DNA of 64,000 nucleotides from Kordiimonas sp. (GCF_048264555.1 NZ_JBLXCX010000008.1:16414-80413), one strand, 5' to 3'; shown: positions 20,513 through 51,246, numbered from the stretch's first letter. Numbers and translations are program-made. The notes: a model not told the origin generated them from the letters alone.

Positions 20513-20953
20513 TCAAAAAGCGGCGTCCAGAAGCTCCTGCAATTGGCTCTTGTGCTTAGGAGGGATCATGTCGGCGAGGCTGTAGTGGTCCAGCGTTTCG
20601 AAAAAGCTCTCCAGCGCTTCGGCAAGCACCCTCTTTAGCTGGCAGGCCGGAGTGATGATACAAACATTATCTTGTCCGAAGCATTCAACAAGTGGTGAGC
20701 CTTGCTCTATATCCCGCACTAGCTCACCGATATTGATCTCCTTCGGTGCAGATGCCAGCCTGATACCACCGTTCTTGCCCCGTGTGGCCTCAATATACCC
20801 TTTTGCGCTCAGTTGCTGCACGATCTTCATCAGGTGATTTTTGGAGATGTCATAACTTTCCGCAATGTCCCGAATTGTGGCCAGTTTGTCATCGTTGGCT
20901 GCGAGATACATCAGGACACGAAGGGAATAGTCTGTATAGCGGGTGATATGCAT
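20513..20953 (-). CDS. nsrR: Rrf2-family NO-sensing repressor NsrR
   Basis: TDYSLRVLMYLA, RGKNGGIRL and three Fe-S Cys (VECF...VCIITPAC). Confidence 0.9.
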   Translation of the reverse strand: MHITRYTDYSLRVLMYLAANDDKLATIRDIAESYDISKNHLMKIVQQLSAKGYIEATRGKNGGIRLASAPKEINIGELVRDIEQGSPLVECFGQDNVCIITPACQLKRVLAEALESFFETLDHYSLADMIPPKHKSQLQELLDAAF

Positions 20954-24563: not shown

Positions 24564-24599
24564 CTGCCCGGGGTGTCTGTATGCCCCGGGCAGATTGTT
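24564..24599 (+). terminator. Intrinsic terminator after norB
   Basis: CTGCCCGGGG/CCCCGGGCAG 10-bp stem followed by ATTGTTT. Confidence 0.65.
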
Positions 24600-24607
24600 T
24601 CCAAGAA

Positions 24608-24621
24608 TTGATCCTGCTCAA
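24608..24621 (+). promoter_or_regulatory. FNR-type box
   Basis: TTGAT-CCTG-CTCAA, one mismatch, ~60 bp before ATG 24677. Confidence 0.6.
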
Positions 24622-24676
24622 GCGCCTTTTTCGCTGGCTGTGGTTGTATAGCTGTGCATGGAAGGGAGAATATCCG

Positions 24677-25024
24677 ATGGTAGAGCAATCAGATAGTGGC
24701 AAACCTCTGAATGACCTCGAACGCTATATAGAGATATGTAACGAAGCCTTGGCGCGCAGCTGCGACCAGTTTCCATATAACCGTATATGGCAGGCTGCCA
24801 GCGAAGCGCAGGCTGGCAGGGGCGTTGAATTGGTGTTGGTTGATGAAATGCCGGTTTCAACATGTGAAGTGACTGTTTATAAGGACCATATAGAGCGAGG
24901 ACATGAGGTTGGCGATGCGCCTGTACTGCGCCTGAACAAGAGCTATCTTGAAGATGTGGTCAGCAACCCACAAAAATATATCGACAACCCTACCTTGATA
25001 GATTGGGGTTGGTTGTTCAGGTAG
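24677..25024 (+). CDS. Hypothetical 115-aa protein
   Basis: GGGAG RBS before ATG 24677; C-terminal YLEDVVSNPQKYIDNPTLIDWGWL. Confidence 0.75.
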   Translation: MVEQSDSGKPLNDLERYIEICNEALARSCDQFPYNRIWQAASEAQAGRGVELVLVDEMPVSTCEVTVYKDHIERGHEVGDAPVLRLNKSYLEDVVSNPQKYIDNPTLIDWGWLFR

Positions 25025-25060
25025 CTGGCCATCTGTCGTGAGGATGGATGGCACCATGTG

Positions 25061-26890
25061 TCATGATGCCAGTTTCGTGTTTTTTTCGGCACGTGCCAAC
25101 GGCGAAGACTGTTCTGCCTGCTGTAAATCGGCGTCGTTGGACCAGGCTTTGATATGATGTATGAACTCATTGCTCAGCCGTTCCCTAATTTCCTCTTCTG
25201 CCCAGAAGGGGTTCATGAAGACGCAACGCAACAACACCAGATGGTCATCATCAATTGATCCTCCGTACCCGACTACATGACGCTGGATAACCTTGTGATG
25301 TGAGCTCATGGAAAGAGTTGTCTTTGAGACTGAAAAGTCCGGGCAATCGACAAATTTTTGAAATACAGTGCTGGTCAGCCTGTTAGCTTCACGCAGTGAT
25401 TTTGCCTTGGTGGTTAGAGAGAAACACATGATATTTGTTTCGACTGGGGTGAGGATATGCGCTGTAGGGATGGCTTTCTCGATCTTCTGTTTCACTGCCC
25501 GGCAGGCGTGGATCGTCTGTTCGATCACGGCACCAAGCCCCTTCGGGTTGAAGCCGAGCGTTTTTCCAGTCAGCCATGTGGCAGCAGCACCGGCTGCTGA
25601 GCGCGAGCCCTCAAGCGTCGTAGACCATTTGTCTGGCATTTCCTGTTGGCGTTCGAGGTATGGGGCCTTGAATCCAGAGACGGAATAGGCTTCGTGGTCG
25701 CGGGTGACGATGGCGCCGCAGGCATAGGGCACATAGCCAAGTTTGTGCGGATCTATGGTGACCGAATGCACCTCGGAAATCGAGTTGAGTGCGGCGCTGT
25801 TAGAAACGCTCAGCACCTGTGAACTTGCACCGCCCCGAAGGAGGGTGCATAGGAAACCACCATAAGCCGCATCCACATGATGCCAAATATCCCAGCCTCG
25901 GCGATCTTTCTGGGCATTCAGGATGCCTTGCACCTGGTCTATCGGGTCAATTTCGCCGGTCTCAGTGGTGCCGGCTACGCTCACGACCATGATGATTGGC
26001 CGTTTGGAGCGCTCGGCAACTTCGATTAGCTTTTGCAGAGCGGCAACGTCCATCTTGCCCATGCCGTCGAGGGGAACAGGCCAGAAGGCCTCCTCACCAA
26101 GACCAAAAATATTTACCGCCTTGGTCCAGGAAAAATGCTTGTTCTCTGGCACCAGCAGTACTGGGCCACGATAAGGTATACCGAAAGCGCGGGTCATGCG
26201 TTCGCCAAAGAGGTAGGGGTTGCTTGCCACTGCGCTGCAGCGCTTTAGGGAGTCAATTGGGACACTGTGCTTACAGAGCAACTGGCCAAAGCGTTTCCAG
26301 CCCATATGGGCGGCATCAAACAGGTCAAGTGTTAAACCACGATTTTCCGCGAGGTAAAGCGCCAGGCTCAGCCAGTGATCTTGGCGGAAGCGCGCGCGCC
26401 ATACAGCCTCGAAATTAGCAACCGTGCCGCCCCCGGTTATATGGCCTGTGGCCCGGGCTGGGTTGAACCCCAGCATTTTTGCCAGCATAGCAATAACTTC
26501 TACCTCGACCTTTGAGCCGATGTTGGAGGCGTCACGACTTGTGTTATTGGGGTTGTGCAGCAGCATGGCAAAGTGGCCAAGTAAGGACGGGAGCGTCAGC
26601 TCCGAGACCATATGGCCGATATAACGCGGTGGAAATTTAGGGACTTCTGCCTTCAGCATCTCGTTGAGTTCCTCAAGGCCCTGACTAATGCGTTCCCTCG
26701 CTCTGAGGTAGCCCGGTGACCGTCGATCCTCGGGGCTGGATACACTTGGGTCATTGGTGAAAAGCTGTTTTCGCCAATGGAACCAGTGGTCAAGAGTAGC
26801 TTGGAACTCTGCTCTGACCCAAGCTTCGTTTTCTGCCTTGGGGCCGAGGAAGTAGGCCTGATATGCATTCGAGTGCGCACTGGTTTCCAT
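25061..26890 (-). CDS. Group II PLP-dependent decarboxylase (tyrosine-decarboxylase-like)
   Basis: FLGPKAEN, GHITGGGTVANFEAVW, KHFSWTKA, HVDAAYGG and IDPHKLGYVPY (PLP lysine). AGGAG RBS before ATG 26890. Confidence 0.88.
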   Translation of the reverse strand: METSAHSNAYQAYFLGPKAENEAWVRAEFQATLDHWFHWRKQLFTNDPSVSSPEDRRSPGYLRARERISQGLEELNEMLKAEVPKFPPRYIGHMVSELTLPSLLGHFAMLLHNPNNTSRDASNIGSKVEVEVIAMLAKMLGFNPARATGHITGGGTVANFEAVWRARFRQDHWLSLALYLAENRGLTLDLFDAAHMGWKRFGQLLCKHSVPIDSLKRCSAVASNPYLFGERMTRAFGIPYRGPVLLVPENKHFSWTKAVNIFGLGEEAFWPVPLDGMGKMDVAALQKLIEVAERSKRPIIMVVSVAGTTETGEIDPIDQVQGILNAQKDRRGWDIWHHVDAAYGGFLCTLLRGGASSQVLSVSNSAALNSISEVHSVTIDPHKLGYVPYACGAIVTRDHEAYSVSGFKAPYLERQQEMPDKWSTTLEGSRSAAGAAATWLTGKTLGFNPKGLGAVIEQTIHACRAVKQKIEKAIPTAHILTPVETNIMCFSLTTKAKSLREANRLTSTVFQKFVDCPDFSVSKTTLSMSSHHKVIQRHVVGYGGSIDDDHLVLLRCVFMNPFWAEEEIRERLSNEFIHHIKAWSNDADLQQAEQSSPLARAEKNTKLAS

Positions 26891-26894
26891 AAGC

Positions 26895-28172
26895 CTAACT
26901 CCTGTCACATATGGCTGAGGTGAAGGGAATGCAGTCCACCAACTCGCCTTTGGCTACCGCATCCACCCCCTCGGGGATAACAATCCAGGCATCGCTGCGT
27001 CCAAATGGCGCGGTTTGGAAAGACTGTTGCCTTGCGTCGGCGGTCACGTGTAGTTGTCCTGTCTCATTTGTGGTGAGCTTGCCCATGAGGAACGTAGTCT
27101 TAGCTGAAGCGCCGCGGACCTCATTGGTCAGCCGAGCTGCCAGCGACCGTTCATGTGCGACACCAGAAAGCAAGTGAGCGAAAGGCTTCACAAAGGCTCC
27201 GAGTGCCAGCGCAGTCGAGATCGGGTTGCCAGGCAGACCGAAGAAATATTTACCGCCGGGCAAAGTTGCAAAAAGGATCGGTTTTGCCGGTTTTATCCGC
27301 ACTCGGTGCACGTGGATGCGGGCACCAAAATCTTCCAGTACCGGTTTTACAAAATCATACTGCCCTGCCGACACACCACCGGTGGACAAGATGATGTTGG
27401 CATCCCCTTCAAGTGCGGTTTCAAGTGCTGCCGCGAAATCTTGCGGGGTGTCACGCACAGTAGTGGCGTTGGTAAACTCGACGCCCATGTCCTCACACAC
27501 TGATTGCCCATAAAGTGCGGTAGCATTGTAGATATGCCCGGGCGCAAGCGGTTTGGTGAAGTCATCACTGATTTCTTGCCCGGTGCTTATCCAGCATGCC
27601 TTCGGTCTTTCGAATACCATCACCGATGCAGCGCCACTTGCGCACAGCATGGGCAGGTGTGCGGCCTTGATTCGGGTCCCAGCCTCGAGAAGTAAATCGT
27701 TTGTCGCTATGTCCTGCCCCACAAGGCGGACATGCCTGCCTTTCGGGTATGGGCTTGTGAAGGTCAGGTTTTCGTGATCCCAGCTTGCGGCTTCGACCGG
27801 CATCACGGTGTCCGCGCCGTCAGGCATGGGTGCGCCCGTCATGATCTTTGCTGCCCGCCCGGACACAAGATGGGAGAGACCTGCCGTATCCCCCGCAATG
27901 CTGGCGCCCACGACTAGGAGAGACACAGGCGCATCCTCCGACGCCGCAGCTACGTCTGCGGAGGCAAAGGCGAAGCCGTCCATCGCGCTATTCTCAAAAC
28001 TGGGTACCGCGATCGATGCGTGGATATCAGTAGCCAACACTTTCCCTAGGGCTGCGGAGAGAGGCACCAGGTGCGGTGCTAAAACCTCGGCCGTATCACA
28101 GATAGCCGCAAGGCTGTCTGTGTAGGATTGCATAACCAGTGTATCGGAGCGGATGGGGGCTTGCGCATTCAT
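26895..28172 (-). CDS. moeA: Molybdopterin molybdenumtransferase
   Basis: SAMDGFA, IMTGAPMPDGADTV, STGGVSAG and FGLPGNP motifs; ATGA coupling with mobA. Confidence 0.95.
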   Translation of the reverse strand: MNAQAPIRSDTLVMQSYTDSLAAICDTAEVLAPHLVPLSAALGKVLATDIHASIAVPSFENSAMDGFAFASADVAAASEDAPVSLLVVGASIAGDTAGLSHLVSGRAAKIMTGAPMPDGADTVMPVEAASWDHENLTFTSPYPKGRHVRLVGQDIATNDLLLEAGTRIKAAHLPMLCASGAASVMVFERPKACWISTGQEISDDFTKPLAPGHIYNATALYGQSVCEDMGVEFTNATTVRDTPQDFAAALETALEGDANIILSTGGVSAGQYDFVKPVLEDFGARIHVHRVRIKPAKPILFATLPGGKYFFGLPGNPISTALALGAFVKPFAHLLSGVAHERSLAARLTNEVRGASAKTTFLMGKLTTNETGQLHVTADARQQSFQTAPFGRSDAWIVIPEGVDAVAKGELVDCIPFTSAICDRS

Positions 28173-28726
28173 TGGCAGCACCTTTCGTTTGCGTGAGCGG
28201 GATGGCTGTAAGGGAGATCACCCAGATGATTGAGGTTACGGAAAGCACGGTCCGCGAAGGCCGGTACAGTCAGGAGCGTTGCTTTGTTTGCGCTGAGCAG
28301 ATCACGTAAGCGCGGACCGCTACCTGAAACTATTTCACCCCCGATGGCGGTGAAGGGGAAAACGTAACCATCATACCTTGTCCAATGAGTAACTGATGCA
28401 AGCGGTGCGAGCAGGGCCGGGCTCAGATAGGGCATATCGATAGGTACGACAACATGCCGCTGTCCGGCGCCGGCAGCACGCAGATAGCTCAGAAGGGCGG
28501 GGACCGGCCCAGCAAAAGGCGTTTCATCGGCCACGCCATCTTCAACATCCGGTTTGCCGAGTATGACAACGCGGTCTACACCAGCCTTGAAGAGCAGAGC
28601 GCGCATATGATCGAGCAGCGTGCTGTTGCCCCAGGGTAATGTGGCTTTGTCGTGACCCATACGGCGTGATGCGCCGCCCGCCAGAATGACGCCTAAACAG
28701 CCGCTGTGTGGAAGAGAGCTCAGCAT
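28169..28726 (-). CDS. mobA: Molybdenum cofactor guanylyltransferase
   Basis: VILAGGASRRMGHDKA, GPVPA, DMPYL and NLN motifs. Confidence 0.85.
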   Translation of the reverse strand: MLSSLPHSGCLGVILAGGASRRMGHDKATLPWGNSTLLDHMRALLFKAGVDRVVILGKPDVEDGVADETPFAGPVPALLSYLRAAGAGQRHVVVPIDMPYLSPALLAPLASVTHWTRYDGYVFPFTAIGGEIVSGSGPRLRDLLSANKATLLTVPAFADRAFRNLNHLGDLPYSHPAHANERCCQ

Positions 28727-28728
28727 AA

Positions 28729-29706
28729 TTAGCCTCCGATGGCGGAAAGGTTGCGGGTCATTCCAGCATTACCGAAAGCAAGTTGATGGTTGGCATCCTT
28801 GCTACGCACGGCAGAGATGAGCCTTTCCCGTAGCTCCTCAAATTGTTCGTCAGACTGCAGATAGTCGCGTAGAGGAATGCCAAAGTTTCCAAATAAACAC
28901 AGGTGTAGATTGCCCTGACTCGAGAAGCGCAACCGATTACAACTTTTGCAGAAATCTTTGGAATAGGGCGCGATAAGGCCGATCCTCCCAGCGTGGTTGG
29001 TGTGCATGAATTCATTGGCCGGGCCGCTATCCGCCGCTTTGATGGTTGGGGCCCAGCCGAGTATTTTCAACCGATCAGCGATCACGTCGGTGGAAATATG
29101 GTGGTTACGGAAAAAAGCCGCATGATCGCCAGTTTCCATCAACTCGATGAAGCGGATGGAGACAGGAAGGGTTTTTGTGAGCGTTATAAAGTCCGCCACT
29201 TCGTGATCATTGATATCCTTCATATAAACCACGTTAATCTTCACATCGCTGAATCCCGCCTCTAGCGCCCGATGGATTCCGTGAAGCACTTCATGGCAAC
29301 GGTCGTGGCCAGTGATGCGTCTGAATGCTTCCCGGTTCAGGCTGTCGAGGCTCACGTTGATGGCGTTGAGCCCAAGTCCATGCCAGCGTTCCACGCGTTC
29401 GTGTAGCCTGTAGCCGTTGGTGGTAAGGGCGAGTTTCTTCAGCCCGCCCACCGTGCTGATGTCGGCGACGATATCGTCGAAATCCGGCCGGATGGTTGGT
29501 TCGCCGCCGGTTAGCCTGATTTTCCTAAGTCCAAGTGAAACAAAAGCCCTGGCGGCGCGACGCAATTCGTCCCTACTCAGGGGTGGCGGGGAACCACATT
29601 TCTTGAAACCTTCCGGCAGACAGTAGCTACAGCGAAAATTGCAGGCGTCTGTCACCGACAGGCGCAGATACTGGAATGTGCGATCGAAACCGTCCGTCAG
29701 GTGCAC
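28729..29706 (-). CDS. moaA: GTP 3',8-cyclase
   Basis: YLRLSVTDACNFRCSYC, RLTGGEP and FCKSCNRLR...LCL motifs; AGGAG RBS before GTG 29706. Confidence 0.95.
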   Translation of the reverse strand: MHLTDGFDRTFQYLRLSVTDACNFRCSYCLPEGFKKCGSPPPLSRDELRRAARAFVSLGLRKIRLTGGEPTIRPDFDDIVADISTVGGLKKLALTTNGYRLHERVERWHGLGLNAINVSLDSLNREAFRRITGHDRCHEVLHGIHRALEAGFSDVKINVVYMKDINDHEVADFITLTKTLPVSIRFIELMETGDHAAFFRNHHISTDVIADRLKILGWAPTIKAADSGPANEFMHTNHAGRIGLIAPYSKDFCKSCNRLRFSSQGNLHLCLFGNFGIPLRDYLQSDEQFEELRERLISAVRSKDANHQLAFGNAGMTRNLSAIGG

Positions 29707-29711
29707 AGCAG

Positions 29712-29845
29712 ATCTCCTTTCCAATCACGAGAGGCTTGGCAGTTTCCCTATCAAACCCGGCGGCGTTGTGCCGCGGCCCCGGTGCCATATTCTGAGTAAG
29801 GGGAGCCCGAACGTAGGCACCGAGGCTTCGGAGTTGAGCACTCGA
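29712..29845 (-). ncRNA. Moco (molybdenum cofactor) riboswitch
   Basis: Minus strand reads ACTCCGAAGC...CCTACG...TATGG...GGAAAC...GCCTCTCGTGATTGGAAAGGAG, the conserved elements of the Moco RNA motif, ending on the moaA RBS. Confidence 0.75.
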
Positions 29846-29880
29846 GATCTGTTTGTTAGCGCGATAGAGGACGGGGAGGT

Positions 29881-29894
29881 TTGATGCAGATCAA
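29881..29894 (-). promoter_or_regulatory. FNR-type box for the moaA operon
   Basis: Perfect TTGAT-GCAG-ATCAA. A -41.5 centring predicts a start near 29846, the riboswitch 5' end. Confidence 0.85.
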
Positions 29895-29896
29895 GT

Positions 29897-31507
29897 TTAG
29901 TTGCGAAATGAGATATCGCTTAGTTCGGGACGAGGGCATTCTTCGGTGCTGGCGCGTACGCACTGGATGGCAAGTTCCACATCACAAAATTCACATAGAG
30001 AGAAAGGATCCGGAGCTATCACATGGTCACTAGAGACTTCGAAGCCATCCTGCTTGAACTTTTGCAGAGTTCTTGAAAAGGTTTCAGGGCGCATGTCCAG
30101 ATAGGAGGCTATGATCGACTTTTCATAAGGAAGATATATTGTGCCGTCGGGCGTGCGCTGGTTGAGTGCAAGCCTAAGCAAAAACCAGCCAACCCGTTCC
30201 TGGGCGGTTTTGAGGCGAGAAAGCTCCAGCTGCTGCACCAAGCGCTGTGAACGCAATGAAACGGTATTAAGCATGCTGACAGCGAGTTGTGGACTGGATT
30301 GTATGCGCTGGCGGATAACGGGTGCGGGGATGGAGAGTAGCAATGCGTTTTCAACAACTTGAGCGCTTACGGGAGTAGGTACATCGAGGAAAACAGCGGC
30401 CTCTAGTAGTGTTTCTCCGCTCCCTAGCATCTGGAGGATTGCTTCCTCGCCGGTCTCCAGTCCGTTGTAGACCTTCACCCAGCCTTGTAAAACGACATAG
30501 AGCCGTGTGGCAGGCTCGTCTCGTAAGAACAATAGCTTGTCTTTTTCATATTCGCGGATCTGAGCGAAGGATAAAAGTTCGTCCAACTCGTGGTCATCGA
30601 TTGCAGCGAGCATGGGTAGCGACTTAAGAAACGGCCGATACTGTGTAATCTGGGCTACTGCTCCTTTTTGCCGCGTCGCAGGCGCGGGCGAATTTGCTGG
30701 TTTGGCGGCAGTTTGCACTAGGCCCTCTACCAGCTTTTGCTCTGCCTCTCTCAGTCCATCGATCATGCGGGACAGGAGCTCAAACCATGCTTCGCCTGTA
30801 TATTTTTCGATTTCACCGAGTGGTGCGCCATCTTCCAGAAGGGTGTTCACTTCGGCTAGGGCATCAAAATCGCCTGCTTCGACATGTTCCTCTACAATCT
30901 GGATCTGGTCAGCAGAGGCAAGCGCTTTAAATGTCTCGAAATAGGCTTTCTGCTCGGCGATGAGAGCGACGAAACGGTCGCAAAATTCCTGATTCCGGAA
31001 TGAATAGGTGTGGAAGCCGCGCGCTCCTAGTGCCCGTTCCATGCCGAGGCGCTCTTTCCATTGCAGGAAGTTGGAATAGGCTGAAACAAGTTTCGAGTCG
31101 TAGCCTTCCTGTCGCTGTGCCAGTTCGATCATTATGTCGATTGTGGGCACGGTGAAGGAGAATGTATAGGTGTTCAGCGCCTGAGTGTAGCGGTAAGCCA
31201 GCAGGCGTATTTTATCTCGCGTTTGGTCGATTTGCTCAAATTTGTTGATTAGGGGCATCAGACGGTCGGACCAAAAACCGTTGGGCAACCCCTTTTTTGC
31301 TTCGTCGCGTGCAAGGAAGGTGCGCAGCTCAGCCACAGCGTCGTTCACCCGGCCATTTTGGGTGTCGTATTGACGCGCAAAGATTTTACCAAGGCTGTCG
31401 AGGAAAAGGCCAGCACAGCCGCGCTCGCGCTGAAGCTGATGAACAGTCTCGCCCAGCTTGTTCAGCAGGCTTCCTGCCAGGTCAGTTTTCTCTGTCACTA
31501 TGCTCAA
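29897..31507 (-). CDS. NIT-domain (nitrate/nitrite sensing) + Crp/Fnr transcriptional regulator fusion
   Basis: N-terminal VHQLQRERG and WKERLGMERA (NIT), cNMP-binding domain (VVLQGWVKVY...GETLLEAAVF), HTH IASYLDMRPETFSRTL, and Cys-rich tail. Confidence 0.85.
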   Translation of the reverse strand: MSIVTEKTDLAGSLLNKLGETVHQLQRERGCAGLFLDSLGKIFARQYDTQNGRVNDAVAELRTFLARDEAKKGLPNGFWSDRLMPLINKFEQIDQTRDKIRLLAYRYTQALNTYTFSFTVPTIDIMIELAQRQEGYDSKLVSAYSNFLQWKERLGMERALGARGFHTYSFRNQEFCDRFVALIAEQKAYFETFKALASADQIQIVEEHVEAGDFDALAEVNTLLEDGAPLGEIEKYTGEAWFELLSRMIDGLREAEQKLVEGLVQTAAKPANSPAPATRQKGAVAQITQYRPFLKSLPMLAAIDDHELDELLSFAQIREYEKDKLLFLRDEPATRLYVVLQGWVKVYNGLETGEEAILQMLGSGETLLEAAVFLDVPTPVSAQVVENALLLSIPAPVIRQRIQSSPQLAVSMLNTVSLRSQRLVQQLELSRLKTAQERVGWFLLRLALNQRTPDGTIYLPYEKSIIASYLDMRPETFSRTLQKFKQDGFEVSSDHVIAPDPFSLCEFCDVELAIQCVRASTEECPRPELSDISFRN

Positions 31508-33092: not shown

Positions 33093-34736
33093 ATGTTTGA
33101 AAAGAAACAGAATATGGAATTGCAGGTCAAAGGCCGCGATCTCTATGGCTGGAACCCTGATGACGACGCTCAGTGGGCGTCAGTGGGCCAGAAGATAGCC
33201 AGCCGAAACCTGTGGATCTCGATCCCGTCGCTCTTGTGCGGCTTCGCGGTCTGGCTTTATTGGGGCATCATTACGGTGCAGATGCTGAACCTTGGGTTTC
33301 ATTTCTCGCGTGATGAACTGTTCTCTCTTACAGCTATCGCCGGGCTTTCCGGTGCCACCCTGCGCATTCCGAGTTCGTTTTTTATCCGTCTGGCGGGAGG
33401 GCGGTACACCATCTTTTTAACCACCACCTTGCTTATCGTTCCGGCCGCAGCTGCAGGGTTTCTTCTTCAAGATGTGAATACACCATTGTGGCAGTTTCAA
33501 CTGGTGGCCTTGCTGTCTGGCTTAGGTGGCGGCAACTTCGCGTCTTCGATGTCAAATATTAGTTTCTTCTATCCGCGTAAGATACAGGGGTATGCGCTAG
33601 GTATGAATGCGGGCCTCGGCAATTTCGGTGTCACGACGATGCAGATATTGGTGCCGCTGGTGATGACCTTTGCACTATTCGGCGGCGATAGCATGACGTT
33701 GCAGGCCATGTCCGGCACGTTGATTGGCAAAATACCTGCCGGTACAGAGACCTATATCTTCAACGCCGGTTGGGTTTGGTTGCTGCTTTTGATCCCTCTG
33801 GCTTTTGCCACCTGGTTTGGCATGAACACTATCCGGGACGAGCATGTTTCGCCAGATACTGACAGTGCGGTTTCAGCTTTTAGCAAAATTTGCGGATTGT
33901 TGTTAATCGGCTTTGCCACGGCGGCTTTTGGGTTGTGGTTAATGCTGCCGGCTAGCTTTGGCGGCTCCGGTTGGGAAGTGTCGAAATTCATCGTGTTACC
34001 GCTGGTGATTGCGTTGACAGTCTTTGCCATGAAACTAATTCCCGGCAGAATCCAGACAAATCTGGCACGTCAGTTTAAGATTTTTGGTAACAAGCATACT
34101 TGGTCGATGTCGCTCATCTATACGATGACCTTTGGTTCTTTTATTGGCTTTTCAGCCGCGCTGCCATTGGCGATTAAGGTGGTGTTTGGATATCAGCATC
34201 TCCTGGTAGAAGGGGTAATGACCCACACGACGCCGAACCCCAGTGGGCCCAGTGCACTGATGTATGCGTGGATGGGGCCCTTTATCGGCGCATTAGTTCG
34301 GCCTGTCGGCGGCATGTTGGCTGATCGTTGGGGCGGGGCACGTGTAACGCAAATCATTAGCGTGATCATGGCTGGGGCCGCACTGGGTGTCGCTTACTAT
34401 ATGAAAGCAGCCTACGGTTCGGCCACACCGGAAGATTATTTCTGGCCATTCCTGGTCCTGTTCATCGTGCTGTTTGCCGCCACAGGTGTTGGCAATGGCT
34501 CCACCTTCCGAACTATCGCCATGGTTTTTGATAAGGAACAGACCGGCCCTGTTTTGGGTTGGACGTCGGCGGTTGCTGCCTATGGAGCGTTCTTCATTCC
34601 GCAGGTGTTTGGTGAACAAATCAAAGCCACGACCCCAGAATTCGCACTGTACGGTTTCACCATTTTCTATGGCGTTTGCATCTTGACCAACTGGTGGTTC
34701 TACCTGCGCAAAAACGCCTACGTGCAGAATCCATAA
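33093..34736 (+). CDS. narK: NarK2-type nitrate/nitrite antiporter (MFS)
   Basis: WNPDDDAQW...IASRNLWISI, GGGNFASSM and GVGNGSTF motifs. Confidence 0.9.
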   Translation: MFEKKQNMELQVKGRDLYGWNPDDDAQWASVGQKIASRNLWISIPSLLCGFAVWLYWGIITVQMLNLGFHFSRDELFSLTAIAGLSGATLRIPSSFFIRLAGGRYTIFLTTTLLIVPAAAAGFLLQDVNTPLWQFQLVALLSGLGGGNFASSMSNISFFYPRKIQGYALGMNAGLGNFGVTTMQILVPLVMTFALFGGDSMTLQAMSGTLIGKIPAGTETYIFNAGWVWLLLLIPLAFATWFGMNTIRDEHVSPDTDSAVSAFSKICGLLLIGFATAAFGLWLMLPASFGGSGWEVSKFIVLPLVIALTVFAMKLIPGRIQTNLARQFKIFGNKHTWSMSLIYTMTFGSFIGFSAALPLAIKVVFGYQHLLVEGVMTHTTPNPSGPSALMYAWMGPFIGALVRPVGGMLADRWGGARVTQIISVIMAGAALGVAYYMKAAYGSATPEDYFWPFLVLFIVLFAATGVGNGSTFRTIAMVFDKEQTGPVLGWTSAVAAYGAFFIPQVFGEQIKATTPEFALYGFTIFYGVCILTNWWFYLRKNAYVQNP

Positions 34737-41934: not shown

Positions 41935-42588
41935 ATGGACGCATATGAAAAACTGATCGACGGCTACCGCTCTTTTCGCGGCCAGTATCTCGACAAGCAG
42001 TATGAAGCTTATCGGGAATGGGCGGCTCAGGGCCAAAGCCCAAAAAGCTTGATCATTGGTTGCAGTGATAGCCGGGTGAACCCTGTTATCCTGACTCATG
42101 CTGGGCTAGGCGAGATTTTCGTCGTCAACAATGTTGCCAACATCGTACCACCCTATGAAAAAGGACGCTCGCACCATAAATCCTTGGGCGCCGCCATCCA
42201 GTTCGCCGTCAATCACCTTCGGGTAGAGCATATTATCGTTATGGGCCATAGCGGCTGTGGAGGTATCGCAGCGCTGATGGCTGACGATCCGATGGCACGT
42301 CATGATGCTGGCGAGGATGATTATATTGCCGACTGGGTTTCGATTCTCACGCCGGCGAAGGAGGCCGTGGTGGAGAACTGCGGCGGCTGCAAGGGCGAGG
42401 AGTGCTTTCGGCTTGCCGAAATGGAAGGCGTTCTTGTCTCGATCCGGCACTTAGCTGGGTATCCATGGGTGCGCAGTGCGGTGAGGGCCGGGCGTCTGAC
42501 CTTGCATGCTTGGTATTTCCATATCGATAGCGGAGAATTGCTTTCTTATAGACCTGAGGAGGGGCGTTTTAGTCGGCTTGTTTCCTGA
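41935..42588 (+). CDS. Beta-class carbonic anhydrase
   Basis: IGCSDSRV and VMGHSGCGG zinc ligands. Confidence 0.93.
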   Translation: MDAYEKLIDGYRSFRGQYLDKQYEAYREWAAQGQSPKSLIIGCSDSRVNPVILTHAGLGEIFVVNNVANIVPPYEKGRSHHKSLGAAIQFAVNHLRVEHIIVMGHSGCGGIAALMADDPMARHDAGEDDYIADWVSILTPAKEAVVENCGGCKGEECFRLAEMEGVLVSIRHLAGYPWVRSAVRAGRLTLHAWYFHIDSGELLSYRPEEGRFSRLVS

Positions 42589-48572: not shown

Positions 48573-49484
48573 TTATTCTATGGCACCACGCTGAGTGTGG
48601 CCGGGCTGACCGTGGAAAAAACCATTCGAGAACTGGACGTCGGGCAATAGTTCGTCGAGGAGAGCACAGGCTTTTTCCCCTGAAATCCATTCCGCTGCTC
48701 GGGCGCGAAAAATGTTGGCTACCTGAGCCATGTTGCCAGTGTGTGGGGACAAGCGGAAATCCCTGATACCCATTTGCATCAGCACCGGCAGTTCGTCCAG
48801 CAGGCTGATATATTTGTAGGACAGTGTCTGTAGCCCATTGATGGCGAGAAAGGCCTGACCGTCAAGTGTATCGAGTGTTAGCCCGTCCGGGTCGTTTTCG
48901 CAGACATATCGGCAGCCAGACTTCGTCAGGTGGTTCGCGCGTGCATGGAAGCAGCGCGCGGAGATGGCAAGTGGCGCGCGGCCAAAAACCTGCACTTCAA
49001 GATCGCCTTTGGCAGTGGTCGCCAGTGCCGCCAGCGTCGACTTTGGTAGCTCGGCATTGAGTGAGGTGCGGGTCGCTCCACCATGTTCGAAATGAGCCAG
49101 CGTTTCAGGGTTGTAGATGTTGATGGAGGGACCAAGTGCGTGAGGGCGGTCTTTGAGCAGGCTAATAGTCGACATGTCGTTGGCCTCGATCAGATATTCT
49201 TCGGCGAGCGTCAGGGTTTCCTCCACGCTCGCCATGTCTTTGCCGTCCATCACCAGTTGAAGGCCCGAGAGAATCACCTGTTTGCCCGCCGATCTCAGCC
49301 GGTGGATGATTTCTTCATAATGCACTAGGTGGAAAGGTCGGCGTTTTGCGCAGACAACTTCGCCGAGATAGACGATGTCGATATCAGCCTCATCGGCAAT
49401 ACGAAAATAAAAATCCCTGAATGTATCGACCGGCCAGTTGAAAAGCAGTGGCCCGAGGGACAGTCTGAAAGTTTCTACAGCCAT
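48573..49484 (-). CDS. ubiV: O2-independent ubiquinone biosynthesis protein UbiV (U32 family)
   Basis: LSLGPLLFNW, YLGEVVCAKR, LAISARCFHAR and C.YVC motifs. Confidence 0.92.
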   Translation of the reverse strand: MAVETFRLSLGPLLFNWPVDTFRDFYFRIADEADIDIVYLGEVVCAKRRPFHLVHYEEIIHRLRSAGKQVILSGLQLVMDGKDMASVEETLTLAEEYLIEANDMSTISLLKDRPHALGPSINIYNPETLAHFEHGGATRTSLNAELPKSTLAALATTAKGDLEVQVFGRAPLAISARCFHARANHLTKSGCRYVCENDPDGLTLDTLDGQAFLAINGLQTLSYKYISLLDELPVLMQMGIRDFRLSPHTGNMAQVANIFRARAAEWISGEKACALLDELLPDVQFSNGFFHGQPGHTQRGAIE

Positions 49485-50458
49485 TTTTTCCCGTAAGCTC
49501 CCGTAGTGGTGATGTTGCCCTCCGAGATGGTGGCAAGGTTGGCGCTCGGCGCACTTGTGCCGATGGTGTCGATGGCGCTGCGAAAGCCCGACACCACCTG
49601 CCGCACATAGGCCTTGCTACGTTGTCTTCCTTCGATCTTGAGGGCGCGGACACCCGCCTTCACAAGGCTTGGCAGGATAGAACGAATATCAAGGCTCGTG
49701 GGCTCTTCGAAGATGTAGCCGTGTGCACCCGATACCTGGAACCGTCCCTTGCAAAGAGTGGGGTAACCTGCCTGTTCGTTGTCATTGAAGCGGTTGATGG
49801 TAAAGCCGCCAAGTCGGCTGGTCAGACCGTCCTTTTCGCGTACATAGTCTACATGGCTCGCGGGCGAACAAACGCCATTCCGATTGGGAGACTGTCCGGT
49901 CGCGTAGGAAGAAAGTGTGCAACGTCCCTCAGCCATCGGGCACATGCCGCCAAAGGCGAAAACTTCCGTCTCGACATTGATCTGTTGATTGAGTTTGGCG
50001 ATCTCTGGTACCGTCAGGACGCGCGGCAGCACCACCCGGCGCACGTCGAATGTTTCTGAGTAATAATTAATTGCCGCAGCGTTCGAGGCTGATGCCTGCA
50101 CAGAAAGGTGTAGCCGTAGGTCCGGGTATTGCTCCCGTGCGTAGGCCAGAAGACCGATATCTGCGAGGATGATGGCGTCCACACCAAGTTCGCTGGCGTA
50201 TGCTATGGCGCGATGCCAAGGGGTTGGGTCGATCGCGTCCGCATAGGTGTTTACCGCCAGTAGCACCTTCCGTCCCGCCTTGTGTGCATATGCTATAGCC
50301 CCTTCAAGCTCCGCGACCGAAAAGTTCAACCCTGGGAAGTTGCGGGCATTGGTCTCATCCCGGAAACCGAGGTAGACAGCATCTGCCCCGGCTTCGACTG
50401 CGGCGCGAAGCGCAGCCGGGGTGCCAGCGGGACACACAAGTTCAAGTGCTGTGGTCAT
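49475..50458 (-). CDS. ubiU: O2-independent ubiquinone biosynthesis protein UbiU (U32 family)
   Basis: ELVCPAG, TNARNFPGLNF, CPMAEGRCTLSSY, GVCSP, PTLCKGRF and KIEGRQRS motifs. Confidence 0.95.
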   Translation of the reverse strand: MTTALELVCPAGTPAALRAAVEAGADAVYLGFRDETNARNFPGLNFSVAELEGAIAYAHKAGRKVLLAVNTYADAIDPTPWHRAIAYASELGVDAIILADIGLLAYAREQYPDLRLHLSVQASASNAAAINYYSETFDVRRVVLPRVLTVPEIAKLNQQINVETEVFAFGGMCPMAEGRCTLSSYATGQSPNRNGVCSPASHVDYVREKDGLTSRLGGFTINRFNDNEQAGYPTLCKGRFQVSGAHGYIFEEPTSLDIRSILPSLVKAGVRALKIEGRQRSKAYVRQVVSGFRSAIDTIGTSAPSANLATISEGNITTTGAYGKKWL

Positions 50459-51177
50459 AAAGGGGCTTTCTCTGTATGCGTAGCGTTGGTGACGGTCGAT
50501 TTCTTATGGCGGGTCTGAGCTATTCTGACCTGCCTGCGCAGAGAGGCAAGGTCGTCGCTCAACTGGCGAACCTTCGTGTTCAATGCCGCCACTTGCATCA
50601 TCGGGCGGGCCTGAAACCAGTTCTGTAGCTGTTGGCTATGACATAGCAAGGTACTATGTACCGAACTGCCGAGCTGTATCGTGCGCCGCACTATCGGTTC
50701 TGCGGGCCCTAGGAAAGAAAGTAGCTCGGCACGGAAGTCGATTTCCACGCTATCTATGGCGTTCCTGAGCATTAGCAGCGCTTCCGTATCCCCCGTAACC
50801 TGGATGTTGCGTGCAAAAAACAGCGCGTCGCCGTCGCTCTTTCCCTCAAGGAGCGCGATGAGCGCACTAATCGGTGCCTCAATCGATACGTGGGCACGTG
50901 CTAGGTGGGAGGCTGGCGCGGTTTTTACCCTGAAGCCTCCGGGATTGGCGATTACCATGAAGGCGATGCCGACATCCGTCGCGGCAATTCTGTATAGGGT
51001 ACCTGGGGTGAGATGGAGGCGGGAAAAGGCGTCTGGATGGCTAGAGATGATGCGGTCAACCACAGCCTGTAGCGCAAGGTCTAGCGGTGTGGCAGGTAGG
51101 GCGGCCAGCACCCGCCCTGCAAACAGGCCGATATTTCTTGGCATCTCGCCTAGTATCGGGCTCTGAGATTTCCTCAT
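50455..51177 (-). CDS. ubiT: SCP2-domain accessory factor UbiT, with coiled-coil extension
   Basis: LIALLEGKSDGDALFFARNIQVTGDTEALLMLRNAID; first gene of the ubiT-U-V operon. Confidence 0.85.
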   Translation of the reverse strand: MRKSQSPILGEMPRNIGLFAGRVLAALPATPLDLALQAVVDRIISSHPDAFSRLHLTPGTLYRIAATDVGIAFMVIANPGGFRVKTAPASHLARAHVSIEAPISALIALLEGKSDGDALFFARNIQVTGDTEALLMLRNAIDSVEIDFRAELLSFLGPAEPIVRRTIQLGSSVHSTLLCHSQQLQNWFQARPMMQVAALNTKVRQLSDDLASLRRQVRIAQTRHKKSTVTNATHTEKAPL

Positions 51178-51232: not shown

Positions 51233-51246
51233 TTGATACAAGTCAA
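51233..51246 (-). promoter_or_regulatory. FNR-type box for ubiTUV
   Basis: TTGAC-TTGT-ATCAA on the minus strand, ~60 bp before ubiT. Confidence 0.75.

Follow-up and report, generated by a model that had tools for sequence, protein, structure and literature searches.

What does an amino-acid decarboxylase do at the end of an operon for the synthesis of molybdenum cofactor (Moco)? The question is raised by a stretch of 64,000 nucleotides (nt) from Kordiimonas sp. (GCF_048264555.1, NZ_JBLXCX010000008.1:16414-80413), called the window here, which is a part of contig 8 of a 3.98 Mb genome. On the minus strand of the window, a gene for a tyrosine decarboxylase (TyrDC)-like group II decarboxylase dependent on pyridoxal phosphate (PLP), of 609 amino acids (aa) and with PLP lysine K383 (25061..26890, PF00282), follows moaA, a mobA-like gene and moeA. 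In our reading, to which we give a probability of roughly 60%, it encodes a cytoplasmic amino-acid decarboxylase that is induced anaerobically and accompanies respiration of nitrate and nitric oxide (NO), here expressed by read-through from an FNR-type promoter of moaA. Enzymes of its clade would recur as members of the anaerobic regulon of FNR/FixK/NnrR type in Proteobacteria respiring nitrate or NO. Stand-alone decarboxylase genes would be controlled through a TTG-N8-CAA box of their own, others would be housed in box-bearing operons, and the window gene, lacking a promoter signal of its own, would be transcribed as the fourth gene from the class II FNR-type moaA promoter.

An earlier note on this DNA had described the decarboxylase gene as the last one of a Moco operon preceded by an FNR box and a Moco riboswitch, and gene order and domain matches bear this out. 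A perfect FNR/Crp-type palindrome TTGAT-N4-ATCAA is located at 29881..29894, with its centre about 42 nt ahead of the first riboswitch base; a distance of about 42 nt between box and 5' end is the spacing of class II FNR promoters. The riboswitch (RF01055, 29698..29845, minus strand) scored 72 bits against an Rfam gathering score of 36 and is the sole copy in the whole genome. On the same strand follow moaA for GTP 3',8-cyclase (28729..29706; TIGR02666, 334 bits against a cut-off of 284; Pfam domains Radical_SAM and Mob_synth_C), a gene for a mobA-like NTP transferase of 185 aa (28169..28726; PF12804, NTP_transf_3, 83.6 bits), moeA for molybdopterin molybdotransferase (26895..28181; domains MoeA_N, MoCF_biosynth and MoeA_C) and the decarboxylase gene. 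The last junction reads AGGAG (26903-26899), T, TAG (26897-26895), GCTT and ATG (26890-26888). The gap of 4 nt after the moeA stop and the separate ribosome-binding site, both claimed previously, are thus present, the latter (26899..26903, minus strand) within the last moeA codons and 8 nt before the ATG. This start is backed by M1, which is invariant across 12 aligned homologs.

GC content is even over the operon, and no further TTG-N8-CAA box was present between the box at 29881-29894 and the decarboxylase start. In the same interval of the minus strand, promoter and terminator scans gave no promoter-like or terminator-like site, and so no sign of the separate promoter that would speak against co-transcription. 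At the sequence level, the locus therefore has the make-up of a single Moco operon: its genes share one strand and are joined by short junctions, promoter and terminator signals are missing inside it, and one promoter with a riboswitch lies upstream. As for the riboswitch, the 3' strand of its P1 stem, AAAGGAG, is itself the ribosome-binding site of moaA. Since it works at moaA translation, any effect on the fourth gene would be indirect only, through translational coupling, polarity or mRNA stability, and to call the decarboxylase Moco-riboswitch-controlled, as had been done, was too strong.

The main reason to read the window gene as co-transcribed with moaA comes from its orthologs, which appear to have kept their regulon control either by a box of their own or by insertion into a box-bearing operon. 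The strict box of Escherichia coli type (TTGAT-N4-ATCAA, at most one mismatch) was found upstream of almost no orthologs beyond Kordiimonas, and the looser Crp-family core TTG-N8-CAA was used for the scan. Of the 22 alpha-clade loci in which the decarboxylase heads its unit, 17 have this core 60-142 nt ahead of the start codon, compared with a background of 0.28 such boxes per kb in the ortholog loci and 0.23 per kb in the window (binomial P ~2e-16; on a conservative tally by lineage, 7 of 10, ~6e-7). Most of these boxes read TTGAC/TTGAT...GTCAA/ATCAA, and some are NnrR-like (TTGCG...CGCAA). The seven operon-internal orthologs without their own box are all located after moeA, a U32 gene, a DUF454 gene (itself after nnrS) or a gene for an FAD protein, and for three of them (L024, L027 and L112) the box was located upstream of the operon. 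A conserved TTG-N8-CAA palindrome at promoter distance, which marks members of an FNR/FixK/NnrR-type regulon, is thus found in the clade. Taken together with the tight moeA junction, the corresponding junctions in two sister species and the lack of internal signals, the own boxes of stand-alone orthologs favour the earlier proposal of co-transcription, which is the simplest reading of the locus; from the sequence, we infer both co-transcription and anaerobic induction of the decarboxylase.

Does the linkage recur in other genomes? The family sample comprised 37 genomes, ten of which, including that of the window, possess the decarboxylase; the nine other orthologs share 55-73% identity with it. 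Two genomes (G002 and G007, loci L024 and L027) harbour the same succession of a NIT-Crp regulator gene, box, riboswitch, moaA, moeA and decarboxylase, with junctions of 17-18 nt and with the box centred about 42.5 nt before the riboswitch, placed as in the window. In G019 (locus L028), two Peptidase_U32 (ubiU/ubiV-like) genes precede a terminal decarboxylase gene, with narGHJI and nnrS as neighbours, and in G035 the decarboxylase is divergent from nnrS-moeA, near nar genes. The remaining five Kordiimonas genomes contain a stand-alone decarboxylase gene flanked by an XRE-cupin regulator with kbl-tdh-like genes and, at its other end, by astA/DDAH-like genes, and all five loci have a conserved FNR-type box at about -80. 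Here (L021, L022, L023, L025 and L026), the decarboxylase is divergent from the regulator gene (HTH_3 and Cupin_2 domains), which is followed by the kbl-like and tdh-like genes, and the intergenic region contains a conserved TTCACTATATTGAA motif near the regulator gene. FNR-type and XRE-cupin regulators may thus both control the decarboxylase in these five loci.

When one genome of each species was scanned, 593 relatives were found, and 80 of their loci were retrieved. Among Caulobacterales, namely in Brevundimonas (B. denitrificans NBRC 110107 included) and others, the decarboxylase gene opens a tightly packed operon and is followed by moaD (after a gap of 1 nt), moaE, moaB, moaC and moeA. 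An FNR-type box is located ahead of this operon, and ytfE, class II ribonucleotide reductase (RNR), ubiT/U/V-like genes and nnrS are found downstream of it. No Moco riboswitch was present upstream of the decarboxylase in these operons; in L042, it precedes moaA only (20682-20820). The adjacency of decarboxylase and Moco genes, the uniqueness of which would have counted against a meaningful link, thus recurs within Kordiimonas and, in another gene order, in Brevundimonas. Other Brevundimonas loci (L033, L034 and L045) contain norB, nnrS, in some cases a U32 pair, DUF454 and then the decarboxylase. The DUF454 gene, coding for a YbaN-like membrane protein, was recognized by Pfam directly 5' of the decarboxylase of L034, in an apparent norB-nnrS-ubiTUV-like string, and the upstream open reading frames (ORFs) of L033 and L045 are similar to it. 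In Maricaulaceae loci, a nar-type porin gene or hemN is divergent from the decarboxylase.

In an evenly drawn sample of 400 Alphaproteobacteria, orthologs occurred in seven genomes. Linkage to Moco genes is operonic and exists in two gene orders, in a gene that is rare in the class and often located away from moa genes. The contexts of the seven were two Brevundimonas moa operons, one nrdDG locus, one chemoreceptor locus, two loci of one genus without recognizable neighbours and one short contig. An nrdDG context is seen in L112 (7714-14798, genome G300), where the order is box, FAD_binding_3, decarboxylase, box, nrdD-nrdG, box and nnrS, with hemN divergent; the presence of a flavin-monooxygenase-like gene of UbiH-like fold (FAD_binding_3) behind an FNR-type box is odd. 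In L116 (11679-13541, genome G127), the decarboxylase is divergent from a gene for a NIT-HAMP-MCP chemoreceptor, i.e. a chemotaxis transducer with a nitrate/nitrite-sensing domain, and a NUDIX gene lies downstream. When all orthologs with at least 45% identity and at least 10 kb of flanking sequence were considered, Moco or anaerobic markers were found within 10 kb in 19 of 26.

A maximum-likelihood tree of 92 homologs placed the window decarboxylase in a strongly supported clade, designated clade A, which consists of Alphaproteobacteria, some Halieaceae and Bdellovibrionota. Within clade A, two distinct sub-clades show the gene in a Moco operon, with opposite gene positions, so that this context arose at least twice. 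A second, well-separated clade comprises Lysobacterales and other Gammaproteobacteria; U32-pair, norB, nar or moaA neighbours occur in 6 of its 10 loci, and FNR-type boxes in 3 of 9. Separate again is the classical TyrDC clade (Enterococcus, Clostridium and Archaea). In seven of eight classical TyrDC loci from Firmicutes and Archaea, an AA_permease gene lies within the fetched flanks, whereas no amino-acid permease or antiporter was adjacent in any clade-A locus examined.

The presence of the gene also coincides with that of narG. In the family, narG was detected in 9 of 10 genomes with the decarboxylase and in 5 of 27 without it (Fisher P = 1.4e-4), and the single genome with decarboxylase in which no narG was found is 80% complete. 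In the class sample, the corresponding fractions were 5/7 and 62/393 (Fisher P = 1.8e-3). Neighbourhoods, regulatory boxes and this co-occurrence together back the link to nitrate respiration that had been suggested from the window alone.

Several observations nevertheless weigh against our reading. Related genomes are not independent of each other, so that the P values overstate the case, and those for narG are upper bounds on significance. Two genomes (G195 and G346) carry the decarboxylase without narG, and five alpha-clade loci (L032, L048, L110, L111 and L113) have no box; the gene is thus not strictly bound to nitrate respiration. The promoter scan used a crude sigma-70 consensus, which an internal promoter in moeA could escape. 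Moreover, two independent fusions with different Moco genes exceed what mere membership in the same regulon needs, which leaves room for a Moco-specific role, and no use for the amine product can be named.

Which reaction can be expected of the enzyme? It clearly belongs to the group II PLP decarboxylase family (PF00282, 121.6 bits against a cut-off of 27), within which a look-up in the ESM Atlas returned generic 'PLP decarboxylase' clusters only. The closest solved structures were 6ebn, 5hsi and 7cwx (E 1e-51 to 1e-63). In the TyrDC of Lactobacillus brevis, residues K240/H241, T298, D328, A330, D389, H391, K392, Y398, Y420 and S440 are essential (PMC4904194). Equivalents of all of them are present in the window enzyme and, according to the alignment, invariant in the decarboxylase family. 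K383, H252, D340, G155-T156, S429 and Y411, invariant in 31 alpha-clade rows, correspond to L. brevis K392, H241, D328, G158-S159, S440 and Y420, respectively, and make up the catalytic set of group II. K383 is the PLP lysine of a D-P-H-K motif, H252 the stacking residue, D340 the partner of the pyridine nitrogen and Y411 a part of the catalytic loop, while by the L. brevis mapping G155-T156 (G-T/S) binds phosphate and S429 is the phosphate-binding serine from the partner subunit. As the catalytic residues are all kept, a true decarboxylase is to be expected rather than an inactive paralog or an enzyme making aldehydes (aldehyde synthase). More precisely, we expect a catalytically competent cytoplasmic L-amino-acid decarboxylase that forms a distinct clade within the TyrDC-like branch.

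The TyrDCs of L. brevis (5hsi/5hsj) and Enterococcus faecalis (7cwx) resemble the window enzyme in length (about 600 aa) and in their three-part architecture, and match it over residues 11-351 and 366-461 (E 1e-51 to 1e-61). However, identity is only about 30%, the window enzyme belongs to a different and strongly supported clade, and the equivalog model of Enterococcus-type TyrDC (TIGR03811) gave 224 bits against a cut-off of 905. A tyrosine/tyramine exchanger gene, which is to be expected beside such a TyrDC, was adjacent neither in the window nor in any clade-A locus. The Enterococcus/Lactobacillus genes have an adjacent tyrP-type antiporter and are induced by acid and tyrosine, in contrast to the window gene with no antiporter and with putative FNR-type control. 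The L. brevis pocket residues N100, V/G296 and S586 are replaced by V/K, A and V, respectively, in the clade. In L. brevis TyrDC, activity on tyrosine is kept only with small residues at position 586 (PMC4904194), and the valine in this place speaks weakly against tyrosine as the substrate. Since the pocket is mostly hydrophobic, the substrate is probably an aromatic or hydrophobic amino acid, though not necessarily tyrosine.

Clade A has invariant residues of its own, namely H112, C391, R414, W422, T425 and R430. Their placement relative to the active site is taken from the alignment to L. brevis TyrDC only. C391 is two residues past Y389, the equivalent of the substrate-contacting Y398, and R414 is three past Y411 of the catalytic loop. 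Compared with TyrDC, the loop has undergone a charge reversal (E to R414), and C391, H112 and W422 are specific to the clade. H112, C391, R414 and W422 are replaced by Y, A, E or other residues, and G, respectively, in other clades. The top-scoring solved relative, PcncAAAD of Psilocybe cubensis (6ebn, E 3e-63), matches in the N-terminal, PLP and C-terminal segments. It differs from the window enzyme in its fungal origin, its length of 1013 aa with an additional C-terminal part, its context and the lack of the clade-specific C391.

With a decarboxylase of this kind, the proximity of Moco genes allows for a direct role in Moco supply (the earlier note had named cofactor metabolism among other options): the enzyme might catalyse or assist a hitherto unrecognized step when much bis-molybdopterin guanine dinucleotide is needed for NarG, for example sulfur or precursor handling for MoaD/MoaE, or provision of a small amine stabilizing or maturing Moco. 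Such a role would fit the two independent fusions, in which the decarboxylase takes opposite ends of the operon (behind moeA in Kordiimonas, but at the front and 1 nt ahead of moaD in Brevundimonas), the position of the Kordiimonas gene in the genome's only riboswitch-gated Moco unit, and the clade-specific C391, R414 and W422 near active-site segments. We nevertheless consider it unlikely. Most orthologs are not found beside moa genes; their neighbours are ubiUV-like, nor, nnrS, hemN or nrdDG genes, or they are solitary genes behind an FNR-type box. The gene's rarity (7/400 Alphaproteobacteria) is hard to reconcile with a pathway that is widespread and, in model organisms, complete without this gene. 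We also see no chemical reason why the established Moco pathway should include the alpha-decarboxylation of an amino acid. Finally, the riboswitch works at the ribosome-binding site of moaA, and the Brevundimonas operons do without one upstream of the decarboxylase. Because the recurring partners represent the whole anaerobic island (nar, nor, nnrS, ytfE, ubiTUV, hemN and RNR) and not Moco specifically, a role in cofactor metabolism is a minority reading. Rather than catalysing a step of Moco synthesis, the enzyme would serve anaerobic or nitrosative physiology broadly.

Improbable in our view is also a biodegradative enzyme for pH, nitrite or energy homeostasis, similar to CadA/AdiA of E. coli or TyrDC of lactic acid bacteria, which would consume a cytoplasmic proton and, together with an exchanger encoded elsewhere, contribute to proton-motive force (PMF) or relieve nitrous-acid stress in anaerobiosis. 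The nearest characterized relatives are indeed biodegradative TyrDCs, anaerobic control of the FNR type is typical of inducible biodegradative decarboxylases, and a beta-carbonic anhydrase gene is present in the nar operon. This does not agree with the lack of a permease or antiporter beside clade-A genes, compared with an AA_permease in 7/8 classical TyrDC loci, nor with the hosts, which are mostly marine or freshwater, non-acidophilic Alphaproteobacteria. Proton consumption would moreover be no obvious benefit, as NarG, owing to the topology of Nar, already consumes cytoplasmic protons. The analysis gave no evidence for such consumption or for a supply of CO2 to the carbonic anhydrase, both of which the earlier note had raised. 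We are equally sceptical of the view that the decarboxylase is a mere passenger, i.e. an unrelated housekeeping or catabolic gene which travels with mobile anaerobic islands and owes its operon position to an accident of compaction. Immediate gene partners do vary between genomes, and in G195 and G346 the gene occurs in the absence of narG and of anaerobic neighbours. A passenger would, however, hardly account for the five Kordiimonas orthologs outside anaerobic clusters, which keep an FNR-type box and four of which come from narG-containing genomes, or for the same association in a second, distant clade of Gammaproteobacteria.

If the decarboxylase is a regular member of the anaerobic regulon, as we propose, one may go a step further and regard clade A and the independently associated gammaproteobacterial clade as carriers of an unrecognized accessory function of nitrate/NO respiration, the product of which would be needed under anoxia; we put this forward tentatively. 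Supply or protection of Moco or of O2-independent ubiquinone, or handling of a nitrosatively altered amino acid, would be possible uses. One such amino acid could be 3-nitrotyrosine, whose anionic phenolate would suit the loop arginine specific to the clade, but this is pure speculation.

Two narrower roles were considered and rejected. As the gene follows ubiU/ubiV-like genes in some genomes, it could be thought of as a missing decarboxylase of anaerobic ubiquinone synthesis; some Alphaproteobacteria without UbiD/UbiX rely on the O2-dependent UbiN (PMC10626278). UbiD (PF01977) was detected in genome G000 as well as in 54 of 61 relatives, its distribution was not complementary, and PLP chemistry does not suit an aryl carboxylate. 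The other candidate was a PanP-like anaerobic supply of beta-alanine. PanD (PF02261) was detected in G000 and in most Kordiimonas irrespective of the decarboxylase, and the PanP model scored 131 bits against a cut-off of 606.

Nitrate respiration and denitrification are among the best-studied bacterial energy systems, and their accessory sets (nnrS, ytfE/dnrN, hemN, ubiTUV and extra moa genes) are used for genome annotation and for prediction of N2O/NO turnover. To our knowledge, an amino-acid decarboxylase has so far been no part of this picture. Our literature searches found no paper mentioning a linkage of the decarboxylase to Moco or denitrification genes, and a paper on Hyphomicrobium, where ubiXDTUV is co-regulated with denitrification, mentions no such decarboxylase. 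While the fold and chemistry of the enzyme are known, novelty appears to lie in the clade itself, in how it is regulated and in its persistent association with operons for denitrification and cofactor supply. The gene is tied to these islands by the two independent Moco-operon fusions, the appendage to ubiU/ubiV-like genes, the adjacency to nor, nnrS and nrdDG, and the boxes of FNR type that many lineages share. A functional link would point to a so far unrecognized metabolic need of anoxic, NO-exposed cells, either for an amine or for removal of an amino acid, and give a function to a family annotated merely as 'PLP-dependent decarboxylase family protein'. Even with mere co-regulation, the gene would provide a clean example of regulon membership kept by an own box or by insertion into a box-bearing operon. 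The hypothesis is open to direct test in the cultivable B. denitrificans NBRC 110107 and in Kordiimonas species.

A comparable layout is presumably that of Pseudomonas aeruginosa, with moaA1 beside narK1K2GHJI and moeA1-moaB1-moaE-moaD-moaC beside ubiUVT; we know of no decarboxylase in it. As in P. aeruginosa, the window contains second, anaerobic copies of moaA and moeA beside the nar operon (the other copy of each is on contig 2), and its ubiT/U/V-like genes (48573-51177) belong to the same island, so that cofactor genes of several pathways are packed under putative FNR-type control. Unlike there, the window operon is additionally gated by a Moco riboswitch. The cadBA, adiAC, gadBC and tdcA-tyrP systems share with the window gene, as predicted here from sequence, an amino-acid decarboxylase that is switched on in anaerobiosis, but their defining antiporter is absent from every clade-A locus examined, and the co-encoded precursor/product antiporter of an acid-resistance or PMF system is accordingly missing. 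CadA and AdiA, moreover, belong to a different fold group.

The island surrounding the decarboxylase includes, on one side, narK1, narK2, narGHJI, a beta-carbonic anhydrase gene within the nar operon (41935-42588), a porin-like gene and nnrS, and further an SDR / B12-radical-SAM / MBL module and the ubiT/U/V-like genes. On the other side of the decarboxylase lie an ORF of 147 aa, a qNor-type norB and ytfE, and neither Pfam nor NCBIfam revealed a permease or antiporter among the neighbours, as the earlier note had also found for adjacent antiporters. Other operons of the island are likewise preceded by FNR-type boxes. The regulator gene upstream of moaA (29897..31507, minus strand), the stop codon of which is followed after 2 nt by the perfect box, is divergent from narK1K2GHJI and was also kept in L024 and L027. 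It does not code for a classical FNR, as had been supposed, but for a one-component regulator in which Pfam recognized NIT, cNMP-binding and HTH_Crp domains, and is a candidate for the protein that reads the FNR-type boxes.

Some minor points concern gene boundaries and neighbours in the window. The start of moaA is likely the GTG at 29706, judging from the sequence and the riboswitch alignment (the listed ORF is 28729-29724). MobA models gave only 50-60 bits, under their cut-offs, for the product of 28169-28726, which makes its assignment as MobA uncertain; this gene is present in the window operon only, as moaA is directly followed by moeA in the sister operons L024 and L027. A 10-bp stem-loop spans the decarboxylase stop codon (25049..25071, minus strand; fold of 24985-25075, z = -2.9). 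It has no U-tail, and the terminator scan of the minus strand gave none there, but it is a possible transcript end. The ORF of 147 aa (24581-25024, plus strand) runs towards the decarboxylase gene, and neither Pfam nor NCBIfam gave a match for it. As a one-mismatch FNR-type box, TTGATCCTGCTCAA, is located inside it (24608-24621), its real start is probably later, and it looks like a further member of the anaerobic regulon of the island. The operon of ubiT-like (SCP2), ubiU-like and ubiV-like (Peptidase_U32) genes at 48573-51177 (minus strand) has an FNR-like box upstream (51233-51246), and its U32 gene pair is the one found immediately 5' of the decarboxylase in Kordiimonas locus L028. Finally, the listed narG ORF begins some 60 nt before narK2 ends (overlap 34676-34736); alignments with relatives set in only near residue 25-30, and the true start of narG is therefore probably later.

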